Assembly: GCA_046732535.1 (NCBI GenBank)
Contig: JBKPNH010000062.1
Coordinates: 972-64,971, forward strand
Origin: Acidobacteriota bacterium
Lineage (GTDB): Bacteria > Acidobacteriota > Blastocatellia > Pyrinomonadales > Pyrinomonadaceae
Length of the DNA: 64,000 bases
Direction: 5' to 3'
Shown here: one piece after another, positions 2,991-24,210 of the stretch
Layout of the letters: each line of letters starts with the position of its first letter
How positions within the stretch are numbered: position 1 is the stretch's first letter
Position numbers and translations under genes: made by a program
The notes under the pieces: model-generated
Databases searched by the model: none
Told to the model about the DNA's origin: nothing
What the model saw: only the letters and a program-made list of their open reading frames with translations

Positions 2991-3830
2991 ATGCACCCCA
3001 GCACCCGCAGGAACTATTTTTCTCCGAAGTGTCTCAATGTATGTTGGACCATCGCGATTCTCATCACCGCTGCGGTCCCGCTCTTTGCCACGACAACGGA
3101 TCGAGTGGTCGTTCGGGAGAGCGTCTCGGAGCGCCATCGCGAAGAACTTGCCAACCGATTGCGCGCCATTACTGGCTGGGACGGACTGAAGTTCGACGCC
3201 GCCGGCGTGCTACAGCTAAGCGACTCGGATCGTGCTGATGGTTCAGCGAGCGCGCGCGATCTGCTAAGCCGTGCCGTTTCAGGCCGCCGCGTGATTCTGC
3301 TTGAAGACGCGAGCTCACGAAAGGACGTGGTTTTTTGTCGAGTGGTTTTGGGAAAGTTGGTCCAGGAATCATTATCAAGCAGCGAGATCCACGTAGTCTT
3401 GATTGACTTTGATGACTTTCGCCAGGTGAGCGGAGACAAGCAAGCGCGCGCAGCGTTTAATGTTGGCTGGGCCGTTCTTCATGAGATAGACCACGTTGTC
3501 GTCGACTCTGCTGATCCGCAACAGGACACGTCTGCGGGTGATTGTGAAGGGCACATTAATAAGATGCGCCGCGAGCTTGGTCTACCGGTGAGAAGCAGTT
3601 ACTTCTTCAGTTTTCTACCAATCAGCAATGATGGAGTTCTGATCAGTCGCTTTGTTCGCCTCGGCTTCGATCACACCGTCGGCCGCACTGCAAAACCAAA
3701 GCGTTATTGGTTGATCTGGGACGCTGCCGTTGTCGGCGGTTTGGAGGCCCAAACCGTTGCGACCGAATATCCGATCAAAACGATAGGTGTTAGATCGCTG
3801 TCGTGGCTGTCGACGTCACAAACGTTTTGA
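2991..3830 (+). CDS. Membrane-anchored protein with an HExxH motif (putative zinc metallopeptidase-like, family unknown)
   Basis: ATG at 2991 has GGGAGG 9 nt upstream. N-terminal hydrophobic segment CWTIAILITAAVPLFA. HEIDH is encoded at 3480-3494. Confidence 0.6.
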   Translation: MHPSTRRNYFSPKCLNVCWTIAILITAAVPLFATTTDRVVVRESVSERHREELANRLRAITGWDGLKFDAAGVLQLSDSDRADGSASARDLLSRAVSGRRVILLEDASSRKDVVFCRVVLGKLVQESLSSSEIHVVLIDFDDFRQVSGDKQARAAFNVGWAVLHEIDHVVVDSADPQQDTSAGDCEGHINKMRRELGLPVRSSYFFSFLPISNDGVLISRFVRLGFDHTVGRTAKPKRYWLIWDAAVVGGLEAQTVATEYPIKTIGVRSLSWLSTSQTF

Positions 3831-4067
3831 AGCTACTGTCTTGCTCTTCTTCGCGGCGCCGACTTTGGTTAACAGCTTTTTCGCTTCTCTCGCTTGCCAC
3901 TGCGCATTATTGAGACGAGATCGCGTCTGGCCTATGTTCAACTGGCTCAGACACGCCTGAGCTTCCTTGATGCCTTTGATCGCGAAGTTCAACCGCTCAC
4001 ACGCCTCCCTCAGAAGATTAAGCTCCGAATCTTCGGTTGATGAAGGTGCAAAACCAACTGCGCTCAC
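3816..4067 (-). CDS. Small hypothetical protein (83 aa, helical, basic C-terminus)
   Basis: ORF only, with a GTG start. Its 3' end overlaps the convergent 2991..3830 gene by 15 nt. Confidence 0.3.
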   Translation of the reverse strand: MSAVGFAPSSTEDSELNLLREACERLNFAIKGIKEAQACLSQLNIGQTRSRLNNAQWQAREAKKLLTKVGAAKKSKTVASKRL

Positions 4068-4140
4068 TCCCGCAACTTAGCGGCCCAATTTTCGCTTGGC
4101 AATGTTTACGCTCATAGGAAGAAACAGATCATGACACGGA

Positions 4141-4344
4141 TCATGACGGTCTGCGTTCGGCCGCGGGCCTCGCCGTCTTCATGCTCTCTTTGAGGCGGTT
4201 GCCGCGCTCGTTCGCCGACATCTTTTGCAACGCAGAATGCACTTTCAAAATGACGTCTTTTAGTCGTCGTAATTCCTGGGGCGACTTGTTTTCTGCGAGA
4301 AGAGCGGCAGCAATGTCACTGCTGAGTTCGTTGGAAATGGCCAT
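4141..4344 (-). CDS. Small hypothetical protein (67 aa)
   Basis: ORF only, with no clear Shine-Dalgarno sequence. Confidence 0.3.
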   Translation of the reverse strand: MAISNELSSDIAAALLAENKSPQELRRLKDVILKVHSALQKMSANERGNRLKESMKTARPAAERRPS

Positions 4345-4407
4345 GGTTCAAAGGAATTTCTAATCTGCCGAGGCTGTTTTTGAAGAGAGGCTATCATAGA
4401 TTTTCGG

Positions 4408-4460
4408 TGTTACGTTGATGTTAACTTCGTGTTAATTCATGGCCGATCGAGTTTTATGAT
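4408..4460 (+). promoter_or_regulatory. Three tandem 11-nt units plus a -10-like TATGAT (Pho-box-type promoter candidate for the TonB-dependent receptor)
   Basis: Units are tgttacgttga, tgttaacttcg and tgttaattcat at 4408-4440. TATGAT lies at 4455-4460. Confidence 0.45.
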
Positions 4461-4603
4461 CTCACCCACCCTTTCCTGCTTAACAAACATTTAAGGCGAT
4501 ATTCACTGCTCTTTAACCTCCAGTCAGTAGCGTGTCCACTCGACACCAGAAAACGCATTGAGCAATTAGCACTTCCGTACCAGTTCATCTACAGGAGACT
4601 TGT

Positions 4604-7600
4604 ATGAAATTGTTTACCCTTGTATGCCGCCCGATCTGTTTGCTTCTAACTCTCACATTCTTCGCGTGTGTCGCCGTGGCCCAGTCAGGGACAGTCGGCA
4701 CGTTGACCGGCGTGGTCCACGATCCGAACGGAGCGAACTTGCCCGGCGTCGGCGTTGTCGTGAAAAACCTCGGCACAGGCGCCACCCGCACCGCGGTCAG
4801 CGATGAAGACGGGCATTGGTCCTTACCCGGCCTGTCGGTTGGCACGTACGAAGTCTCCTATGAGAGTACGGGTTTCAAGCGGCTCGTACGCGACCGCGTC
4901 GAAGTAGAAGCGAGCGTTCCTCGCACGCTGGATGACAAACTCGAAGTTGGTGAGATCGGCGCGGTGATCAATATCACCGAAGGCGCAGCGCTCATCACGC
5001 CCGAGACGTCAACCGTCGCGCGACAACTCTCCTCCGAACAACTGGTCCAGGTGCCAACCTCCACTCGCAGCTTCACGCAACTGCTTTCGGCTGAGGCCGG
5101 CGTCAGTTCAGATCTTTCTCCGGTGTTGACCAACGGGAACGGAAACCAGTCGCCGTCAGTAAACGGAACAAGGACCACCAGCACGAGCCTCTTCTTCAAC
5201 GGCATAGACGCCACGAACATCACGTCGAACGAAGGCTCGCTGAACGGGAACATCGCTCCCGCTCCCGAAACGTTGTCGGAAGTGAAACTGCAAACGAGTC
5301 TCTACGACGCGTCGACTGGCCGTTCGGGCGGCGGCAATTTTCAACTCGTCACCAAGAGTGGTACGAACCAGTTCAACGGAAGCGTCTACTACTACTTGCA
5401 GAACGAGAAGTTCAACGCCAACGATTTCTTCTTCAACAAGGACGGAATCGACCGTCCCAAAGCGCGCCGCAATGAAGGCGGGTTTACGATCGGCGGACCG
5501 GTTATTAAAGACCGGCTGTTCTTCTTCGGCGGATATCAGCACACGCAGGCGAACACCGGCTTCGTGAGCACGGCGAGCAGCATCACGGTCTTGCCGGCAG
5601 CATTGCGACTCATCACCGGAGAGCGGACCAAGGAAAACCTGTTAGCGGCCTTCAGCCAGTTGAACCCCGGGATTCTCGCTTCTATTCCGAAGGCGCAGTG
5701 CAATCCAACGGTTAACGGAGTGGTCGATCGCGCTTGTATCTCCGACGTCGCGATCGCATTATTGAACCTGCGAAATCCCGCGACAGGCGACTTCTTCATT
5801 CCTGCCCCACGCATTCCAACAACTATCGGTAGCGACGTGAGCGTAGCCGGCAACAACGGTGGAAATCCCTACGTTCGCCAGCGAAATGTGTTTCCGGCTG
5901 AGTTCGAGCAAGATCAGTTCACGATTAAGCTCGATGGCCGTTTGAGCAAAAAGAATACGTTGAACGGGACCGTGTTCTGGGCCAACTTCCCGGGATTCGA
6001 TCCCTTCCCGGATCCAGGGAGCCTGGCGTCGCCCGTAACAGTGAAGAGATCTGATCGCAATCGCACGGTGGCGATCTCTGACCAGCACGTCTTCGGCCCG
6101 CGGCTCATCAACGAAGTGCGCTTCGGATACTTCTCACTCAACAACACTCGCGTGCTCGACGATCCGTTTCTGGCAATCACTAACGAGTCAGTAGGAATTC
6201 CCAATCCGGCGGTCGCCTTCGACCAGGGACCGGGAACGCTGCGCCTCGGCCATTACGTTGGCCGGCCGGGCACAATCCTCGAAAGGTTTTCTTTCGGCGG
6301 ACCGAACGACACTTTCAATCGTCGCGAACAAAAGACGCTTTCGATCGGCGATCACGTCACTTATCTCGCCGGCGATCACAGCTTCCGCATGGGCGGTGAA
6401 TTCAAGCGCCATAATTTTAACACCGCGCTTCCGGAAGAGCAGGCGACTGAGTTTGAAAAGTACGACAACTTCACTCAGTTCCTGCGTGGAGTTGCGACAG
6501 AGGCTGACACGCAGTTTGGCGTCACTGAGAAGCAGTTCCGCTTTCGTGATGTGAGTCTTTACGTTGCGGATGATTGGAAAGTGAATCGCAAGCTCACTGT
6601 CAATGCAGGCTTGCGTTGGGAGTGGTTCGGTTGGCCCGAAGAGAAGAACGGGATGATCGGCAATTTCGATCCTTCGTTAGTCACCGACTTTGATAATCCG
6701 ATCACGGGTTTCATTGTTCCCTCGAACGCGGGGACGACGGGCTTCGTCGCTGTCGACACCGCCATCCAAGCAACGACGAGGGCCAGCACGAAGAGCACGA
6801 TAAAGAACCAGGACTTCAACAACCTTGCACCGCGCTTCGGATTCGCCTTTACGCCGTTCGACAAATTAGTCGTTAGAGGCGGTTACGGCATCTTCTTCGA
6901 TCGCCCATCAGCGGCGTTCATCAATACGGTCTTCAGCAATTATCCTCACCTGCGCGAAGAGGAAGTGACTTTCCCCGGCAGCAACGTTCCACTGAATTTG
7001 GCGTGGTCACAACAGGATCCAAACTTTCCATTCAACCAGTATCTGCCGAATCGCGTGGTGCGCACGGGCGGCGCCAATGGAACTTACCAGATTCGCGACA
7101 ATACCAACGTAACGCGAGGAGCAGACGGCACTCTGAATCCGATCGATCCTGCGACTGGACAGCCGTTCAGAGGAAACATCGCCGAGACGTTTGAGTTTCG
7201 CGCTGTCGATCGCAATCTGCGCACGCCATATGTCCAGCAGTGGAACCTCGGCGCGCAATACGAGGTTGGAGCTAACCTCCTGGTCGAGGTCAGATACGTC
7301 GGTTCCAAGGGGACAAAACTGCTTCAGGCGACTTCGTTCGCGCAGGGATTCGACTTAAACGATCCGAACACTCCGGATTTTATATATGAGAGATTCAACC
7401 GCGCATACGTCGCGTCCGGTAGTCCGCTTGGAGCACTGAACGTAGGTTCGACTGCACGGCAAAGAGGTTTAGGAAAAGCTTTCGGTTTCCCGAACGCGAC
7501 GTTGGGCGGGTTGATTGACTTGAACCTCGCGAATCCGGCGGGCGCGGTGATCACGTTCGAAGGCCGCTCGCCGTTTCTCGGCTTTGACGTGCCCGAGGCG

Positions 7601-8437
7601 ATTCTGCTCGGCAACTCCGCCTATTCAAGCTATCACTCAGCGCAGGTGAGCGTGACCAAGCGTCTCTCGCGAGGATTGCAGTTCAATGCTGCTTACACGT
7701 TCTCGAAGTCCATCGACAATGCGTCCGCCGATCCGGGCAGCACAGCCGGCGGAGGCAAGCCCGACCTGCCGAACGTTGGTTTTGCGGCGCAGGGAAACTC
7801 GTTTGACACCAACGCAAACAAAGGCGTGTCTGATTTCGATCGTCCGCATCGCTTCAGTCTGAGTTTTGTTTACGACATTCCCAGCTTCGGTTCGCAATCG
7901 AAGTTCCTGACAGGCTGGAGAGTTTCTGGTTTTGGACAGGCACAATCTGGGCTGCCTTACTCGATCTTCTCAGCGGAAGTGACAGTAGCGAATCCGACTA
8001 ATTACTCGAGCTTGAGACTCGGTTCCGGCGGTCTGTATCGCCTGGCGTTTGGCCGGCCCACGCTCTGCGGAACGCTCGACGACCTTCGGCGGCAAGGTTC
8101 AGATCCCACTGAGCAGGCTTTCACAGCGAATGGTGTTTTGTGCTCGCCGCTGACCCTGGCTGGTGGTTATCCGAACAACAGAGGTTTTGGAAACCTCGGT
8201 CGAAATGTCCTGCGTGGCTTCAGTCAGAACCGCATTGACCTCGGGCTTTCCAAGAATACAGCGATCACCGAGCGAGTTGGTCTGGAGTTTCGCTGGGACG
8301 TCTTCAACGTCTTCAACAACGTCAACTTCGCAACGCCGAATAACGTGATCGGTGAACCCGGAACTGACTTCGGAAGAATCACCGACACGATCGGCGGTCC
8401 AAGAGTGATGCAGTTTGGGATGAAGCTCAAGTTCTAA
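4604..8437 (+). CDS. TonB-dependent outer-membrane receptor with N-terminal carboxypeptidase-regulatory-like domain
   Basis: 1277 aa with a signal peptide. CarboxypepD_reg-like segment GTLTGVVHDPNGANLPGVGVVVKN...GTYEVSYE, then a long beta-barrel ending in the C-terminal ...FGMKLKF. AGGAG lies before the ATG. Confidence 0.9.
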   Translation: MKLFTLVCRPICLLLTLTFFACVAVAQSGTVGTLTGVVHDPNGANLPGVGVVVKNLGTGATRTAVSDEDGHWSLPGLSVGTYEVSYESTGFKRLVRDRVEVEASVPRTLDDKLEVGEIGAVINITEGAALITPETSTVARQLSSEQLVQVPTSTRSFTQLLSAEAGVSSDLSPVLTNGNGNQSPSVNGTRTTSTSLFFNGIDATNITSNEGSLNGNIAPAPETLSEVKLQTSLYDASTGRSGGGNFQLVTKSGTNQFNGSVYYYLQNEKFNANDFFFNKDGIDRPKARRNEGGFTIGGPVIKDRLFFFGGYQHTQANTGFVSTASSITVLPAALRLITGERTKENLLAAFSQLNPGILASIPKAQCNPTVNGVVDRACISDVAIALLNLRNPATGDFFIPAPRIPTTIGSDVSVAGNNGGNPYVRQRNVFPAEFEQDQFTIKLDGRLSKKNTLNGTVFWANFPGFDPFPDPGSLASPVTVKRSDRNRTVAISDQHVFGPRLINEVRFGYFSLNNTRVLDDPFLAITNESVGIPNPAVAFDQGPGTLRLGHYVGRPGTILERFSFGGPNDTFNRREQKTLSIGDHVTYLAGDHSFRMGGEFKRHNFNTALPEEQATEFEKYDNFTQFLRGVATEADTQFGVTEKQFRFRDVSLYVADDWKVNRKLTVNAGLRWEWFGWPEEKNGMIGNFDPSLVTDFDNPITGFIVPSNAGTTGFVAVDTAIQATTRASTKSTIKNQDFNNLAPRFGFAFTPFDKLVVRGGYGIFFDRPSAAFINTVFSNYPHLREEEVTFPGSNVPLNLAWSQQDPNFPFNQYLPNRVVRTGGANGTYQIRDNTNVTRGADGTLNPIDPATGQPFRGNIAETFEFRAVDRNLRTPYVQQWNLGAQYEVGANLLVEVRYVGSKGTKLLQATSFAQGFDLNDPNTPDFIYERFNRAYVASGSPLGALNVGSTARQRGLGKAFGFPNATLGGLIDLNLANPAGAVITFEGRSPFLGFDVPEAILLGNSAYSSYHSAQVSVTKRLSRGLQFNAAYTFSKSIDNASADPGSTAGGGKPDLPNVGFAAQGNSFDTNANKGVSDFDRPHRFSLSFVYDIPSFGSQSKFLTGWRVSGFGQAQSGLPYSIFSAEVTVANPTNYSSLRLGSGGLYRLAFGRPTLCGTLDDLRRQGSDPTEQAFTANGVLCSPLTLAGGYPNNRGFGNLGRNVLRGFSQNRIDLGLSKNTAITERVGLEFRWDVFNVFNNVNFATPNNVIGEPGTDFGRITDTIGGPRVMQFGMKLKF

Positions 8438-19380: not shown

Positions 19381-19980
19381 ATGGAGCGGCGCGCGGCAAT
19401 GGCTGAGCAGCTTATCAATGGACAGGTTATCGAAGCCTGCCAGCAGGGCGACCGCGAGGCCTTTCACTCCCTCTTCGAAGCTTACAAAGACAAGGTCTTC
19501 TCCATTGCTGTCTACTCTTCCGGCGGTGATCGGACCGTCGCGGAAGACGTCACACAGCAGATCTTTCTCAAGTTGTTCACTGCCATTCGCCAGTTTCGAG
19601 GGGAGTCGGAGTTTACAACCTGGCTTTACCGGCTGGTCGTCAACGCCTGTCTCGACGAGCGTCGCCGACGCCGAAGATGGTTACCCTGGGAATCGACGCA
19701 AACGACGGTGGCGATGAGTAACGTAAGCGACAAAAAACCGCAGGAACGGCAGTATGCCCGGCTCGAGATCTCGGAAGCTGTGCGAAGGGCGATCGCCGAA
19801 TTAAAGCCGAAGTTTCGACTGCCGATCTTGTTGAAGTACATCGAAGGTTTGTCGTACGAGGAGATTGCCGAGGTGATGGGTTGTTCGAAGGGAACCGTGG
19901 CGTCGCGGCTCAACCGCGGTCACAGCCAGTTGGCGAAGCGGTTGTCACACTTAAATAATCCCGCGTTATGGGGTGAGTAG
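19381..19980 (+). CDS. ECF (sigma-70 family) RNA polymerase sigma factor
   Basis: Region 2 (FHSLFEAYKDKVFSIA...DVTQQIFLK...FTTWLYRLVVNACLD) and region 4 (LKYIEGLSYEEIAEVMGCSKGTVASRLNRG). Confidence 0.85.
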   Translation: MERRAAMAEQLINGQVIEACQQGDREAFHSLFEAYKDKVFSIAVYSSGGDRTVAEDVTQQIFLKLFTAIRQFRGESEFTTWLYRLVVNACLDERRRRRRWLPWESTQTTVAMSNVSDKKPQERQYARLEISEAVRRAIAELKPKFRLPILLKYIEGLSYEEIAEVMGCSKGTVASRLNRGHSQLAKRLSHLNNPALWGE

Positions 19981-21153
19981 ATGTTTTCGAAACACGTAAC
20001 AAAAGATATTTCAGCTTACTGTAATGGAGAGCTTTCGAGTGAGGAGTCGAAGCTGTTTGCCGAACACATTATTTCGTGCGTGAAGTGTCGAACAAAGTTT
20101 GAAGAGATAAAGCTTGGTATCAAATTGGCTGAACAACTTCCGCGGCTGAGCGCGCCGGATTCGTTATGGCAGGAAGTTGATTCGTTGCTCGGCAAAGAAA
20201 CCACGGTGATTAGGACCACGTCGTGGCGCAAGCGAATGGCGATTGCGGCGGCGGTGATTATCGTATTCAGTGTCGGAATCGTTTGGGTTTATAACAGCCG
20301 CAAGTCGGAGCCGGAGAAAGGGTGGCAAGTCACTCGTCTCGGCGGCGCTCCGCGAATCGGATCGGAAGCAATTTCGTCCCACGGGTCTCTTGGAAAAGGT
20401 GAATGGTTGGAGACAGATGAAAACTCGCGAGCACAGATCGCAGTCGGATCGATCGGCAATGTTGAAATCGATGAAAACACGCGCGTCCGGCTGGTCGAGA
20501 CGCAGCCGACGGAGCACCGGCTCGAGCTGGCGCGAGGAAAGATGAGTGCGCGGATATGGGCGCCGCCGCGATTGTTCTTTGTCGACACGCCTTCCGCCGT
20601 TGCTGCCGACCTTGGTTGTGCGTACACGCTTGAGGTTAACGATAAAGGTGCGGGCCGGTTAAGCGTGACTTCGGGTTGGGTGGCCTTGCAAGCAAAAGAG
20701 CGCGAGTCTATAGTTCCGGCCGGCGCATCGTGTGAGACGGAGTTGGGCCTTGGGCCAGGCACGCCGTACTTTGACGATTCGACGCCACAGTTTCGGAATG
20801 CACTCCGGGATTTCGATAAGAACTCAGGCAGCCGAACAGACTCACTGACCTCGATGCTCGGCGAGTCGCGCCCCAAAGACACGCTGACCTTGTGGCACTT
20901 GTTACCGCGTGTTAATGAAGCGGATCGCACGCGCGTTTACCAAAAAATAGCTGATCTTGTTCCGCCGCCGGTGGGAGTGACGCGTGAAGGCGTCTTGAAG
21001 TTGGACCAGAAGATGCTGGAGCAGTGGCGGCACTCGCTCGAAGTCATTTGGGGAACCGGCGGGAAGGGAATGCCGAAAAATGCGGCAGAGTGGAAGTCGT
21101 TCAAGAAGGGCGACGATCCGAAGTTCAGCAAAGAAGCGGCGGGCAAGAAGTAA
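19981..21153 (+). CDS. Anti-sigma factor (zf-HC2 N-terminus, one TM, FecR-like periplasmic domain)
   Basis: HIISCVKCRTKFEE zinc-finger motif, TM helix MAIAAAVIIVFSVGIVWV, and a start immediately after the sigma gene stop. Confidence 0.75.
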   Translation: MFSKHVTKDISAYCNGELSSEESKLFAEHIISCVKCRTKFEEIKLGIKLAEQLPRLSAPDSLWQEVDSLLGKETTVIRTTSWRKRMAIAAAVIIVFSVGIVWVYNSRKSEPEKGWQVTRLGGAPRIGSEAISSHGSLGKGEWLETDENSRAQIAVGSIGNVEIDENTRVRLVETQPTEHRLELARGKMSARIWAPPRLFFVDTPSAVAADLGCAYTLEVNDKGAGRLSVTSGWVALQAKERESIVPAGASCETELGLGPGTPYFDDSTPQFRNALRDFDKNSGSRTDSLTSMLGESRPKDTLTLWHLLPRVNEADRTRVYQKIADLVPPPVGVTREGVLKLDQKMLEQWRHSLEVIWGTGGKGMPKNAAEWKSFKKGDDPKFSKEAAGKK

Positions 21154-21164
21154 CTCACATTCTT

Positions 21165-21638
21165 ATGAAAGCCAGACTTCTCAAAGTTGTTAAGTGGTTG
21201 CTGATCGTACTGGTGTGTTTGTTTGTGATCGCGCAATTCAGGAGGCCGGCGAAGACGAACCCGGCGGTTGATCAGGCAGTTGCGCTTGAATCGCATATGC
21301 AGCTCGAGCCGCAGGTTGCCGCGGTTCTCGATCGTTCCTGCATCGACTGCCATTCGAATAAAACGCGCTGGCCGTGGTATGCGAACGTCGCGCCCGTGTC
21401 GTGGTTCGTCATCGGCCATGTCGATCACGGCCGCGACCATATGAACCTATCCGAGTGGGGTAAATATAGTCCGAGCGAGCGAAAAGCGCTGCTTGGTCAG
21501 TTTTGCGAGTTGGTGACGGAAGGCTGGATGCCGCTCAGTTCCTACACGCCGTTGCATCCCGGCTCGAAGCTAAGCGATGCTGATAAGAAGCTCATCTGCG
21601 ATTGGGCCGCCGCTGAAGCCAATAAGATTGGCAGATAA
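21165..21638 (+). CDS. Haem-binding-domain protein (CxxCH)
   Basis: ATG at 21165 and an N-terminal TM helix. CIDCHSNKTRWPWYANVAPVSWFVIGHVDHGRDHMNLSEW resembles the Haem_bd family. Confidence 0.75.
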   Translation: MKARLLKVVKWLLIVLVCLFVIAQFRRPAKTNPAVDQAVALESHMQLEPQVAAVLDRSCIDCHSNKTRWPWYANVAPVSWFVIGHVDHGRDHMNLSEWGKYSPSERKALLGQFCELVTEGWMPLSSYTPLHPGSKLSDADKKLICDWAAAEANKIGR

Positions 21639-21676: not shown

Positions 21677-22717
21677 CTATGAGCGCTGTCTATTTTGCGT
21701 TCGTAATGGCGCTCTGTTGGATGTTTGTTTTTGCTTTTCGTACCAGGCAACCCGCTCAGCTAAAGTTGTACGTTTTATACCTAACGCTACCGCCGTTGAT
21801 GTTAGATGTGCTCGATGTCTCGCAAGAGCTTTCTTTATATACATCTTTTCGAAACTGGAAATCGCTTCGTCGAGCAGAATGTGACCCTCAAGCATCTCGT
21901 CTATTAATTGCGCAAGCCGACCATCAAATGAGCGTTTAGTCTTAGACCGACGCCTCGCTTTCGCATCATTTTCATTTCGTTCCCCGGCCCGCGCGTTTTC
22001 AGACTGTTCCGCATTTAAAGCCATCCCGTGCTTGATATACAGAGATATCCATTTTCTGAGCACCAGAACAAGATTCGGTAAATGCCGAATTGACTCGATC
22101 GCTCCCGACTCAAATGCTCGAAGTGTCTTTTGATCCTGGCAATGGACAAGCGCGCGGAAGAATCCCGTTCTGACCGCGGCTCTCCTGAATTCGTCGCGAT
22201 TTTCATGCCCTGCGAACAGCTTCGCGGGAACTAAGTTCCAGCATCGTGCAACGGTCGATATCAGTGGCTGATGATCCTTGAGCCGCTGAAGAAATCGCTT
22301 GAGACCCAGAGACCTTTCGTCACAAAGTTTTAATGCTCCATCTAAGTCTCCGTCCTCTGGTACTGAATGCGAATACAAGATATTCGCCAAATACAAATGA
22401 ACGGAATCATCCTTCAGGAGTTGAGCGAGTTGTTGCAGGGCCTGCTTACGAGTTTTGTCAGTAAGCTCCAAGTCTAGTGATATCAATACAAGGTCAAGCG
22501 CGAGTGTAAGGTTGGAGTCTGCTTTCAGTTCATGCTCAATGGTTTCTTTAGTCGCGTTTTGAATAACTCTAAGATCGCTAGCATCGCCGAAAATAAACTG
22601 AAGGTCCGTTCGGCTTCTCGGAACGATAGTGGATGGGTTGTCCACATCGAACGACTTCAAGGAATCACCGTCGATTAATAATGCCCGTCGTGAACGTCCA
22701 GATATCAATGCGTTCAT
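21677..22717 (-). CDS. Unknown helical protein with a C-terminal Fis-type (HTH_8) DNA-binding domain and no AAA+ module
   Basis: C-terminus FEKMYIKKALARHRAHLTSTAVALGIKRTTLAERV. No Walker A or GAFTGA motif. AT-rich (lines 21721, 22021 and 22381 give 24-26/60 GC). Its start overlaps the upstream stop (TGATG). Confidence 0.6.
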   Translation of the reverse strand: MNALISGRSRRALLIDGDSLKSFDVDNPSTIVPRSRTDLQFIFGDASDLRVIQNATKETIEHELKADSNLTLALDLVLISLDLELTDKTRKQALQQLAQLLKDDSVHLYLANILYSHSVPEDGDLDGALKLCDERSLGLKRFLQRLKDHQPLISTVARCWNLVPAKLFAGHENRDEFRRAAVRTGFFRALVHCQDQKTLRAFESGAIESIRHLPNLVLVLRKWISLYIKHGMALNAEQSENARAGERNENDAKARRRSKTKRSFDGRLAQLIDEMLEGHILLDEAISSFEKMYIKKALARHRAHLTSTAVALGIKRTTLAERVAWYEKQKQTSNRAPLRTQNRQRS

Positions 22718-23568
22718 CAGCTTATTGTTACGCCATGCTTCCTGAGTTTCGATTTAAGTGCCTTGACTATCGTTGCCTTCGCGCGTGCTTTAGGTCCCGT
22801 TACAGTTACCTTCTCCATTGTAAGGACCGAAATCGGGCCCCAAATATGGACCTCCACGAACGCATCGTTCGCGGATGTTACACCTGACCTTAAAAGGAGG
22901 CCTGAGTATTGATTAGGACCTGTTGTAGAGTCAATGTCTGCGGCGAGTTTGGCTACGCAGAGCTTACCCCTGTCAGGCCAAGGTGCCCTAAATCCTTTTG
23001 GCAGATCGGGTTTACCAGCCAAAATCCCATTACGTTTCATGAACAAAACTGAATTCTCTTCGAAAACAGACGCGCGATGCGAAATCATTTCGTTGCGGAG
23101 AGTAATAGAACATGAGCCGTAATTCACTAGTCCTAGGCCATCGAGCGATAGCGCTGCAAAACGTATGTCCTGCTTGTATTTTGGAAAAAGCATCGTATCC
23201 GCAATCTCGCGCACTACGTCCCATTCATCACCGTCAGGCAATCTGACGCCCGCGTCGAGCTGCTGATAGTAGGTTGAGTAAAGTTGTCGCGTACTAGTGG
23301 CAAGTCTAAGAACCTCGCTCTCCGATCGGGCAATAACGGCAGTTGTATTGTTGATTGCGGCTTCGAAGTCTTGGACTGCAACATCCGCTTGCCGTGACAA
23401 AGCATCGGCCTTGGCCAGATCATAACGACTCTGCAAACCTGCTCGTTCGGCTGGATCCTCCGCAGCCAAAACATTCCAGAAGATGCCGGGTTCAGCACAA
23501 TGCGGACAGCGCTCGGCCGAGTGTGGAATATCATTCTTACAACGGGAACAGGTAATAGAGACCGACAT
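22717..23568 (-). CDS. Unknown protein with an N-terminal zinc ribbon
   Basis: CSRCKNDIPHSAERCPHCAEPG, then about 250 aa with no recognised domain. Starts 9 nt after the histidine phosphatase stop. Confidence 0.6.
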   Translation of the reverse strand: MSVSITCSRCKNDIPHSAERCPHCAEPGIFWNVLAAEDPAERAGLQSRYDLAKADALSRQADVAVQDFEAAINNTTAVIARSESEVLRLATSTRQLYSTYYQQLDAGVRLPDGDEWDVVREIADTMLFPKYKQDIRFAALSLDGLGLVNYGSCSITLRNEMISHRASVFEENSVLFMKRNGILAGKPDLPKGFRAPWPDRGKLCVAKLAADIDSTTGPNQYSGLLLRSGVTSANDAFVEVHIWGPISVLTMEKVTVTGPKARAKATIVKALKSKLRKHGVTIS

Positions 23569-23577
23569 CGTGAGAAA

Positions 23578-24210
23578 TTACACCTCAGTGAGATGACGTG
23601 TATCGTTGATAGTGAGCACTCGAACGAAACCATCCCGTCGAAGCTCAAACCGACTAATACCACAGTTGGCGCTGGAGATCCACACGGGCTTCAGTTCCGG
23701 CGCGTCGAGCGCGCCCATGAGGTGCAGGGCCATGATGCAGATCGTTCCGGTGTGACTGAAGATGGCGATGCGTCCGCCTTGATGTTGGTCGATGATCTCG
23801 TCGAGCTTGTTTCGTACGCGATCGAGTAGTTGGCGATAACTCTCGCCGCCGCTTAGCACGTGTTCGAAGTCTCGTCTGAGCAGCGCGGCGTACTCCTCTG
23901 GATGACGCTGTGCTGCGTCTTCGAACGTCAGTCCCTCCATCACGCCGACGCTGCGCTCGCGAAACGCTTCCGTCGCATTGATTGGTAGACCGATCAACGT
24001 CGCCAACGGCCGCGCCGTCTCAAGAGCGCGCGCGAGATCGCTCGAATAGATAGCAGTTATTGAGTCATCTTTAAGGGCCTGCGCCGTAGCCTGTGCCTGC
24101 TTACGCCCGCGCGGCGACAGCGGCGTCGCCGTGTGCCCGCCGAACCTCCGTTCAGCGTTTCCCTCCGATTGCCCGTGGCGTATCAGCAGTACGTGCGTAG
24201 CTTGCGACAT
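23578..24210 (-). CDS. Histidine phosphatase family protein (phosphoglycerate mutase-like)
   Basis: LLIRHGQSEGN catalytic RHG motif and a later ...FSHTG. Confidence 0.8.
   Translation of the reverse strand: MSQATHVLLIRHGQSEGNAERRFGGHTATPLSPRGRKQAQATAQALKDDSITAIYSSDLARALETARPLATLIGLPINATEAFRERSVGVMEGLTFEDAAQRHPEEYAALLRRDFEHVLSGGESYRQLLDRVRNKLDEIIDQHQGGRIAIFSHTGTICIMALHLMGALDAPELKPVWISSANCGISRFELRRDGFVRVLTINDTRHLTEV

Follow-up and report, generated by a model that had tools for sequence, protein, structure and literature searches.

A 64,000-nucleotide (nt) stretch of an Acidobacteriota genome (assembly GCA_046732535.1, contig JBKPNH010000062.1, positions 972 to 64,971; hereafter the window) carries two adjacent minus-strand genes, here called gene A and gene B, and raises the question of what the two encode, whether they belong together and how they came to lie where they do. 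The initial annotation, made from the DNA letters and their open reading frames, regarded them as a translationally coupled cassette that would fit an acquired stress, defence or toxin-regulator module. We find that the pair is a conserved unit of soil Acidobacteria consisting of two uncurated protein families. Gene A probably has an ADP-ribosyltransferase (ART) fold of the SopF/DUF3626 type, and we tentatively favour the reading that the pair is an ART-based switch which acts on, or is held by, a partner domain at the N-terminus of gene B. The two genes are laid out as follows:

22717 to 23568, minus strand: gene A, an open reading frame of 283 amino acids (aa) with a zinc ribbon, a helical linker and a probable ART-fold domain.
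21677 to 22717, minus strand: gene B, an open reading frame of 346 aa with a new N-terminal domain, a charged linker and a helix-turn-helix (HTH) domain of the HTH_8 family.
22715 to 22719, minus strand: TGATG stop/start overlap (translational coupling), read from the DNA.

Both open reading frames and the overlap described earlier can be read in the sequence, where the TGA of gene A (22719-22717) and the ATG of gene B (22717-22715) have one base in common (...ATAAGC TGATG AAC...).

Each of the 21 distinct loci, the window included, has gene A directly upstream of gene B, which confirms that the two form a true and tightly coupled pair. In the relatives the two genes overlap by 1 nt, or else overlap or are separated by a few nt. 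The paired loci include high-GC contigs and unrelated contexts, with TIR-NACHT-TPR in locus L016, CHAT in L017, Pkinase in L018, an extracytoplasmic function (ECF) sigma factor in L019, a RecA-like module in L020 and no fused module in L022. A locus scan with a close alignment of the N-terminal domain and one narrow peptide pattern gave 10 loci, all of them from Acidobacteriota; since this pattern was so narrow, the taxonomic range is under-sampled. No conserved third gene was found: in L016 and L017, the open reading frames that come after the pair are mutually unrelated and belong to no family. The histidine phosphatase encoded next to the pair was considered as a member of the module and rejected, as it is absent from the non-syntenic loci L016-L018, L022 and L024. 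A caspase-family gene (Peptidase_C14) lies 3' of the pair on the same strand in two distant relatives (L001:11335-12633, a TPR version, and L020:3627-4976, the RecA-like version) and is absent from the window. No second copy of gene A or gene B is present within the 64-kb window. In the literature searched, no description of the pair was found, and DUF3626 is mentioned there only for SopF.

Gene B can be divided into three parts:

22028 to 22717, minus strand: N-terminal partner domain (aa 1-230), a beta meander and a helical bundle, from the AlphaFold2 model and the homologue search.
21878 to 22027, minus strand: charged low-complexity linker (aa 231-280), from the sequence, with no family match.
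21749 to 21856, minus strand: Fis/NtrC-type HTH_8 (aa 288-323), PF02954.

An exhaustive HMMER search of 1.84 billion representatives with gene B produced 836 clusters of relatives at E<=1e-3 and 460 at <=1e-10 (clusters at 50% identity). Among the best 150 of the 836, the match spans only query residues ~1-195/230 and is located at the N-terminus of proteins of 120-1204 aa, the few exceptions looking like fragments. A word-indexed search gave two relatives, P0122 and P0123, at 45-47% identity that match residues 1-227 only. Residues 1-230 were modelled by AlphaFold2 from a 16-sequence alignment with a predicted local distance difference test score (pLDDT) of 91 and a predicted template modelling score (pTM) of 0.84, and in the model four beta strands form a meander (residues 2-34), after which comes a helical bundle. 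Foldseek found no match to this fold in the PDB (best E 0.6, template modelling score <=0.27), a profile search of PDB sequences with the domain gave no match, and Pfam, NCBIfam, PADLOC and PHROGs likewise place the region in no known family, in agreement with the initial annotation. The N-terminal domain, of ~195-230 aa, constitutes a new domain family for which no relative has a solved structure. What had been described as an all-helical region of about 270 aa is instead this domain, opening with a beta meander, and a charged linker of ~55 aa.

At the C-terminus, PF02954 scored 30.1 bits against a cut-off of 22 and thereby passed the Pfam gathering score, so that the HTH_8 assignment holds; the C-terminal end of the NCBIfam NtrC model aligns to aa 210-323. 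Also the absence of an AAA+ sigma54-activator module was upheld: Sigma54_activat (PF00158) had no Pfam match in gene B, and the NtrC, AtoC and PrdR equivalog models scored 13-20 bits against cut-offs of 559-795. Lacking the AAA+ domain, gene B is unable to act as a sigma54 activator. Gene B resembles NtrC/Fis-family regulators in its true C-terminal HTH_8, and its relatives P0123 and P0139 have the full Sigma54_activat, AAA_lid and HTH_8 series, whereas gene B itself has no AAA+ domain and bears none of the known sensors (REC, GAF, PAS or others) at its N-terminus. In most relatives, an acidic stretch and then a basic patch (RRRHGRR) are found just past the N-terminal domain. The counterpart in the window, at 21878-22027 (aa 231-280), reads ENDAKARRRSKTKR. 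As judged from these sequences, the acidic stretch and the basic patch may represent a conserved linker motif.

The modules that follow the partner domain differ widely between the relatives. P0122 (374 aa) has HATPase_c_2 after the N-terminal domain, P0123 (564 aa) has Sigma54_activat, AAA_lid and HTH_8, and P0139 has REC as well as the same three domains behind an N-terminal domain of the gene B type. Clustering of the tails gave one TPR group of 30 members, a sigma54 group of 6 members and about 50 singletons, and Pfam scans identified TPR in the tails of ~30 of 86 relatives. The other tails comprise sigma54 AAA+ with or without REC, ECF sigma, Pkinase, HATPase_c_2, CHAT and Peptidase_C25, and further TIR-NACHT-TPR, MreB, a RecA-like P-loop, a polyprenyl-phosphate sugar transferase and DUF4230. 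Complete stand-alone proteins of ~250 aa that contain just the partner domain were found on long contigs. Proteins of ~300 aa with the N-terminal domain and HTH_8 only, as in the window, recur (P0275, P0280-P0282 and L013), and L013 has an HTH tail that falls into one cluster with those of the sigma54-AAA+ members, which suggests that the short forms arose through loss of the AAA+ core. The architecture in the window would then probably derive from an ancestor with N-domain, sigma54 AAA+ and HTH_8 by the same loss. In several TPR tails (L009:7144-7463; also L001, L006 and L015), near-identical 34-aa units (VAKxGRAEVLKAxGxLDEALAAYDEVIxxHPE) are encoded by 102-nt tandem DNA repeats. Their copy number varies between relatives, and repeat expansion therefore seems to be ongoing.

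In gene A, two regions could be delimited:

23488 to 23556, minus strand: zinc ribbon (aa 5-27, CxxC...CPHC), from residue conservation and sub-threshold Pfam matches.
22789 to 23346, minus strand: probable SopF/DUF3626-like ADP-ribosyltransferase-fold domain (~aa 75-260, boundaries approximate), from Foldseek and a weak Pfam match.

Gene A has 601 homologues at E<=1e-3 (clusters at 90% identity). The 120 homologues listed are nearly all ~283 aa long and 57-78% identical; among these, almost none has a precomputed Pfam domain, one being a zinc-ribbon entry, and the named ones belong mostly to Pyrinomonadaceae or other Acidobacteria metagenome-assembled genomes (MAGs). Distant copies, at 44-48% identity, were recovered beside distant gene B relatives. 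C7, C10, C21, P22, H23 and C24 are invariant in 28 homologues, and in a wider 17-sequence set C21 and C24 are invariant and C7 and C10 nearly so. Pfam zinc-ribbon models match 9-14 of the 17 members below threshold. With two CxxC knuckles at conserved spacing and all four cysteines invariant in the 28 homologues, the N-terminus appears to be the zinc ribbon that was first proposed. Beyond this ribbon, gene A belongs to no curated family in Pfam, NCBIfam, PADLOC or PHROGs, as had been suspected, and comparison of both gene products with PDB chains, as single proteins and as family profiles, gave only zinc-ribbon or chance matches. About 40 residues of gene A are invariant over 44-100% identity, including R81, W116, R120, D124, Y150-G151, C153, R165, S167, N172, W197, R200, K207 and E239-x-H241, the last of which sits in the strand FVEVHIWGP. 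This pattern of invariant residues looks like that of an enzyme.

A Foldseek search of the PDB with the low-confidence AlphaFold2 model of gene A gave as best match SopF in complex with ARF1 (7dn8, E 2e-4, probability 1.0). The next matches all have an ART fold: DarT (ranks 3-7), CteC (a ubiquitin-ADP-ribosylating Chromobacterium effector), Tpt1, pertussis toxin S1, PltA and LT. When the model was compared with BFVD, the best of 13 matches below 1e-3 was to a Nodularia phage protein with DUF3626 (E 9e-8). A weak match was also obtained with no model involved, as PF12294 (DUF3626) aligns to homologue P0034 (hmmscan E 0.067, aa 142-260 to positions 83-203 of the hidden Markov model (HMM), colinear). 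The gene A protein of the window had no PF12294 match, and the family HMM matched no open reading frame in the first 50 kb of Bacillus phage CP-51, which has a DUF3626-like fold match; the target could be encoded in another part of the phage genome, or the similarity could be past the reach of an HMM-to-sequence comparison. On the strength of the modelled fold, gene A is probably a SopF/DUF3626-like ART, an assignment that we make with fairly good confidence and that supersedes the initial view that no catalytic motif was evident.

SopF, a type III secretion system effector of Salmonella, carries DUF3626 (PF12294; PMC6682159) and is an ART with an I-Y-E triad whose activity requires ARF GTPases (PMC10333799). 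Apart from being the solved structure that best matches the gene A model, it is comparable in that it requires a protein cofactor (ARF), which parallels the obligatory partner of gene A. It differs in that gene A, from free-living soil bacteria, encodes a cytoplasmic protein that has a zinc ribbon at its N-terminus and no secretion context, that the sequence similarity lies under every curated threshold, and that the partner of gene A is unrelated to ARF.

According to the reading that we tentatively favour, the gene pair would be a regulatory module of two proteins that Acidobacteriota inherit vertically. The enzyme would be gene A, built from a zinc ribbon, a helical linker and a divergent ART fold of the SopF/DUF3626 type, and gene B's N-terminal domain would couple to it both physically and functionally while carrying output or sensor modules that differ by lineage. 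Using nicotinamide adenine dinucleotide (NAD+), gene A would ADP-ribosylate the partner domain, or would be bound and gated by it, and this modification or gating would switch the module fused behind. Since the fused module in the window is a Fis-type HTH, the output here would be DNA binding and transcription control. It is the ADP-ribosylation, its target and its physiological trigger that we infer in this scheme; the pairing, synteny and modularity, the HTH, the newness of the partner domain and the conserved enzyme-like residues were observed, and the ART fold is probable. Support comes from the partner domain being always N-terminal with many outputs, a receiver-like logic (seen among the best 150 of 836 relatives, with a few apparent fragments), from the many outputs that are ordinary regulators, and from the locus being fixed in a core operon with 9-nt spacing.

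In architecture, the pair is analogous to two-component response regulators, in which a constant N-terminal domain with many outputs is likewise found beside a constant enzyme that would modify it; the fold and the chemistry are different, with the proposed ADP-ribosylation in place of phosphotransfer. A broader proposal would be that the pair represents an unrecognised, two-component-like signalling system, widespread in Acidobacteriota, in which a SopF-like ART 'writer' modifies a new 'receiver' domain fused to more than 12 output types, among them HTH, sigma54 activators, ECF sigma factors, kinases, proteases, TIR-STAND and the cytoskeletal MreB; in this general form we consider it unlikely. 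The DraT/DraG system of nitrogenase is a precedent for endogenous protein ADP-ribosylation in bacteria that is regulatory and non-toxic. Gene A differs from it in having no DraT homology, no DraG-like hydrolase and another target.

Several points weigh against the partner-specific switch. The model of gene A has a pLDDT of 57 and a pTM of 0.59, with residues 167-237 below 50. No ART family was detected in gene A at a curated threshold, and PF12294 did not reach its gathering score (12.6 bits against a cut-off of 27) in the one of 17 members that it matched (P0034). With respect to the triad of known ARTs (H/I-Y-E or R-S-E), the catalytic residues Y150 and E239 are candidates; R81, R165 and S167 are also invariant, and R81 and S154, invariant or nearly so, are further candidates. 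The pair encodes no reversing enzyme (macrodomain or ARH), and the partner domain is a presumed ART substrate. Two more observations fit a toxin model better: the outputs include typical conflict-system effectors (TIR, NACHT, CHAT and caspase-like), and gene A is damaged in 3 of the 21 loci whereas gene B is intact in all. The lesions are an in-frame stop codon within the zinc ribbon (L016:2480-3379), a frameshift (L019:278-1089) and an internal deletion of about residues 82-218 (L024:6569-7001), and they may represent real decay or errors of metagenome assembly.

The lack of a curated ART model above threshold would also be in line with gene A being a degenerate ART-like binding module, the pair then forming a structural or adaptor complex that tethers different proteins, and so would the fact that the commonest C-terminal module, TPR, is a scaffold. 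Such a non-enzymatic complex is nevertheless improbable, as many polar, aromatic and charged residues, including the E-x-H strand motif, are invariant over 44-100% identity in a manner that resembles an active site. A constant enzyme next to a constant domain with variable effectors, together with an NAD+-using fold, could alternatively indicate a signal-and-sensor system similar to Thoeris or CBASS, in which the ART-fold enzyme makes a diffusible NAD+-derived molecule and gene B's N-terminal domain is the receptor that drives the effector. We regard this, too, as having little chance of being correct: the commonest fusion, TPR, is not an effector, and we know of no SopF/DarT-type ART-fold enzyme that acts as a signal synthase.

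A close rival to the partner-specific switch, which we hold to be possible though somewhat unlikely, is that the pair is a toxin-antitoxin or conflict module. Gene A would then be an ART toxin, perhaps acting on nucleic acid via its zinc ribbon as DarT does, and gene B's N-terminal domain its cognate neutraliser. The HTH in the window would autoregulate, as in many antitoxins, and the other C-termini would be sensors that release the toxin (TPR, NACHT-TPR, kinase, REC-AAA+) or extra effectors (TIR, CHAT). DarT, which is among the best fold matches of gene A, is a toxin that ADP-ribosylates single-stranded DNA and is paired with the macrodomain antitoxin DarG; darT-darG likewise consists of two overlapping genes with that of the ART-fold toxin first. 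Against this likeness, DarG has no interchangeable output domains such as those on gene B, and neither DarT (DUF4433) nor a macrodomain had a Pfam match in gene A or gene B, which leaves the pair outside DarTG. More generally, neither Pfam nor Foldseek revealed a known antitoxin fold. The damaged gene A beside an intact gene B in L016, L019 and L024 fits a toxin, although the lesions may be assembly errors. A conflict role is further suggested by the TIR-NACHT-TPR, CHAT and Peptidase_C25 fusions, by the Peptidase_C14 gene beside the pair in L001 and L020, by the low GC at third codon positions (GC3), by the existence of a stand-alone N-domain partner and by the strong allele divergence between close relatives (flanks 83-96% identical, zinc-ribbon protein 65%, N-terminal domain 44%). 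On the other hand, many fusions are to ordinary regulators (ECF sigma, sigma54 activators, anti-sigma kinase, HTH) and even to MreB and a sugar transferase, and the pair is fixed at a core-operon position in Blastocatellia and not in variable islands. PADLOC-DB 2.0 gave 0 matches for gene A and matched gene B only via its HTH tail (RtcR/PspF-type model, E 1e-4). With nothing in PADLOC for gene A and no defence-island enrichment seen, the earlier suggestion of a defence module was not supported.

The NTP (nucleoside triphosphate)-dependent conflict systems described by Kaur, Burroughs, Iyer and Aravind in 2020 (PMC7159879) share with our loci a repertoire of TPR, NACHT, TIR, CHAT/caspase and kinase modules and a short constant N-terminal adaptor that links neighbouring genes. 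In that paper, ART occurs only in a three-gene toxin-antitoxin example and Acidobacteria are never mentioned. The systems also differ in that gene B begins with a domain of ~200 aa that includes a beta meander, compared with a death-like helix bundle of ~100 aa, and in that the gene A-gene B module is fixed in a core operon, often with plain transcription regulators.

The operon in question ends immediately upstream of gene A:

23569 to 23577, minus strand: 9-nt spacer (tttctcacg) from the TAA of the histidine-phosphatase gene (23578-23580) to the ATG of gene A, from the sequence.
23578 to 24210, minus strand: histidine phosphatase His_Phos_1 (PF00300 at 1.2e-55), last gene of the rpmE-DUF1385-prfA operon.

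The spacer, read in the sequence, places the pair 9 nt past the last gene of the rpmE-DUF1385-prfA-histidine phosphatase run, as first annotated, and from this layout gene A and gene B are probably co-transcribed with the phosphatase gene. A pattern scan, whose matches overall were near chance, detected nothing promoter-like on the minus strand upstream of gene A and flagged a weak hairpin with a T-tract at the end of the phosphatase gene (23595-23581). On the plus strand, a module at 19381-21638 of the window is convergent with gene B and encodes an ECF sigma factor and a zf-HC2/FecR anti-sigma factor, followed by a Haem_bd protein whose gene faces gene B. This module is syntenic in several relatives, at times with extra genes (a dioxygenase in L002).

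The pair has a GC content of 48.5% (A 50.1%, B 47.2%), whereas the window averages 56.8% (standard deviation 2.2, 1892-nt windows); it is the lowest-GC 1.9-kb stretch of the 64-kb window, with only 0.3% of windows equally low, and its GC3 is 0.46-0.48 compared with 0.62-0.73 in the neighbouring genes. The atypical composition reported at the outset is thus genuine, and would agree with an AT-rich cassette of foreign origin that this genome took up recently at the end of its prfA operon. Relatives argue otherwise. In all Pyrinomonadaceae-type relatives, too, the GC3 of the pair is 0.1-0.2 below that of the flanks, which makes low GC a trait of the gene pair and no sign of recent arrival. As to whether relatives have the prfA operon without the pair, in Pyrinomonadaceae/Blastocatellia MAGs the pair follows the histidine phosphatase, in the order rpmE-DUF1385-prfA-histidine phosphatase-A-B...Haem_bd...FecR-ECF...NuoB-NuoA. 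The phosphatase adjoins the pair in L001-L003, L006, L010, L013 and L020, and loci with the pair at this site include two multi-megabase assemblies. In L020, a distant contig with 68% GC, the series histidine phosphatase-A-B...NuoB-NuoA is retained. Moreover, the window contains no integrase, mobility gene or flanking repeat. Since syntenic relatives share the pair, its site and its GC3 deficit, the idea of an acquired module appended to the operon of this genome did not hold up; the recent-cassette reading is largely refuted by synteny and we consider it very improbable.

There is nevertheless evidence for local change, part of which speaks for such a cassette, namely a duplicated phosphatase end in L010 and the unusual divergence of the window allele. 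Compared with its nearest relative L013, the window is 93% identical in prfA, 83% in the histidine phosphatase and 96% in NuoB, whereas gene A is 65% identical and gene B, in the domain only, 44%. In the TPR-type loci, A (74-92%) and B (71-85%) track their flanks (prfA 84-97%). The divergence from L013 can be either allele replacement by recombination or accelerated divergence after a tail swap. In L010, a 70-nt direct repeat of the phosphatase 3' end, 79% identical, brackets the cassette (5064-5133 and 8225-8294), its second copy lying just past gene B; such an arrangement resembles a scar left when a segment was inserted or replaced. Together, the window allele and this duplicate make turnover of the cassette at the locus plausible. 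A much weaker phosphatase-end trace (NDTRHL) was seen after the cassette in L001 (11096-11125). In L009, a 1.6-kb insertion (3434-5135) separates the histidine phosphatase from gene A; it contains a minus-strand 393-aa multi-pass membrane open reading frame with no assigned family, after which the phosphatase 3' end (aa 13-50) appears once more. The upstream neighbour of gene A in L008, L012 and L015 is a divergently transcribed OmpR-type response regulator and not the prfA operon. Ahead of gene A, L012 (5035-5082) and L015 (5033-5131) retain weak and degenerate remnants of the phosphatase 3' end (tblastn E ~0.7), which point to a rearrangement that parted the operon from the pair. Putative endonuclease genes of the Uma2 family (PF05685) were noted at L001:5601-6167 (between DUF1385 and prfA), L022:13137-13748 and L024:5550-6206, and L009 and L010 have a gap of ~600 nt between DUF1385 and prfA.

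The pair can be described as a two-gene module centred on a probable ART fold, with a new partner domain, an unusual modular logic and a predicted biochemistry. In soil, Acidobacteriota belong to the most abundant bacteria, and their regulation is little understood. The partner domain offers a confidently predicted fold that has no solved relative, and the locus is a natural domain-swapping experiment, since HTH, sigma54-AAA+, anti-sigma-kinase or TPR versions occupy the same site in close relatives. If gene A is an active ART, the pair would be a rare example in which ADP-ribosylation that is endogenous and specific to a partner is linked to transcription factors, sigma factors, kinases and effectors of the cell-death type, and the SopF/DUF3626 fold would extend from a pathogen effector and phage proteins to bacterial housekeeping or conflict biology.

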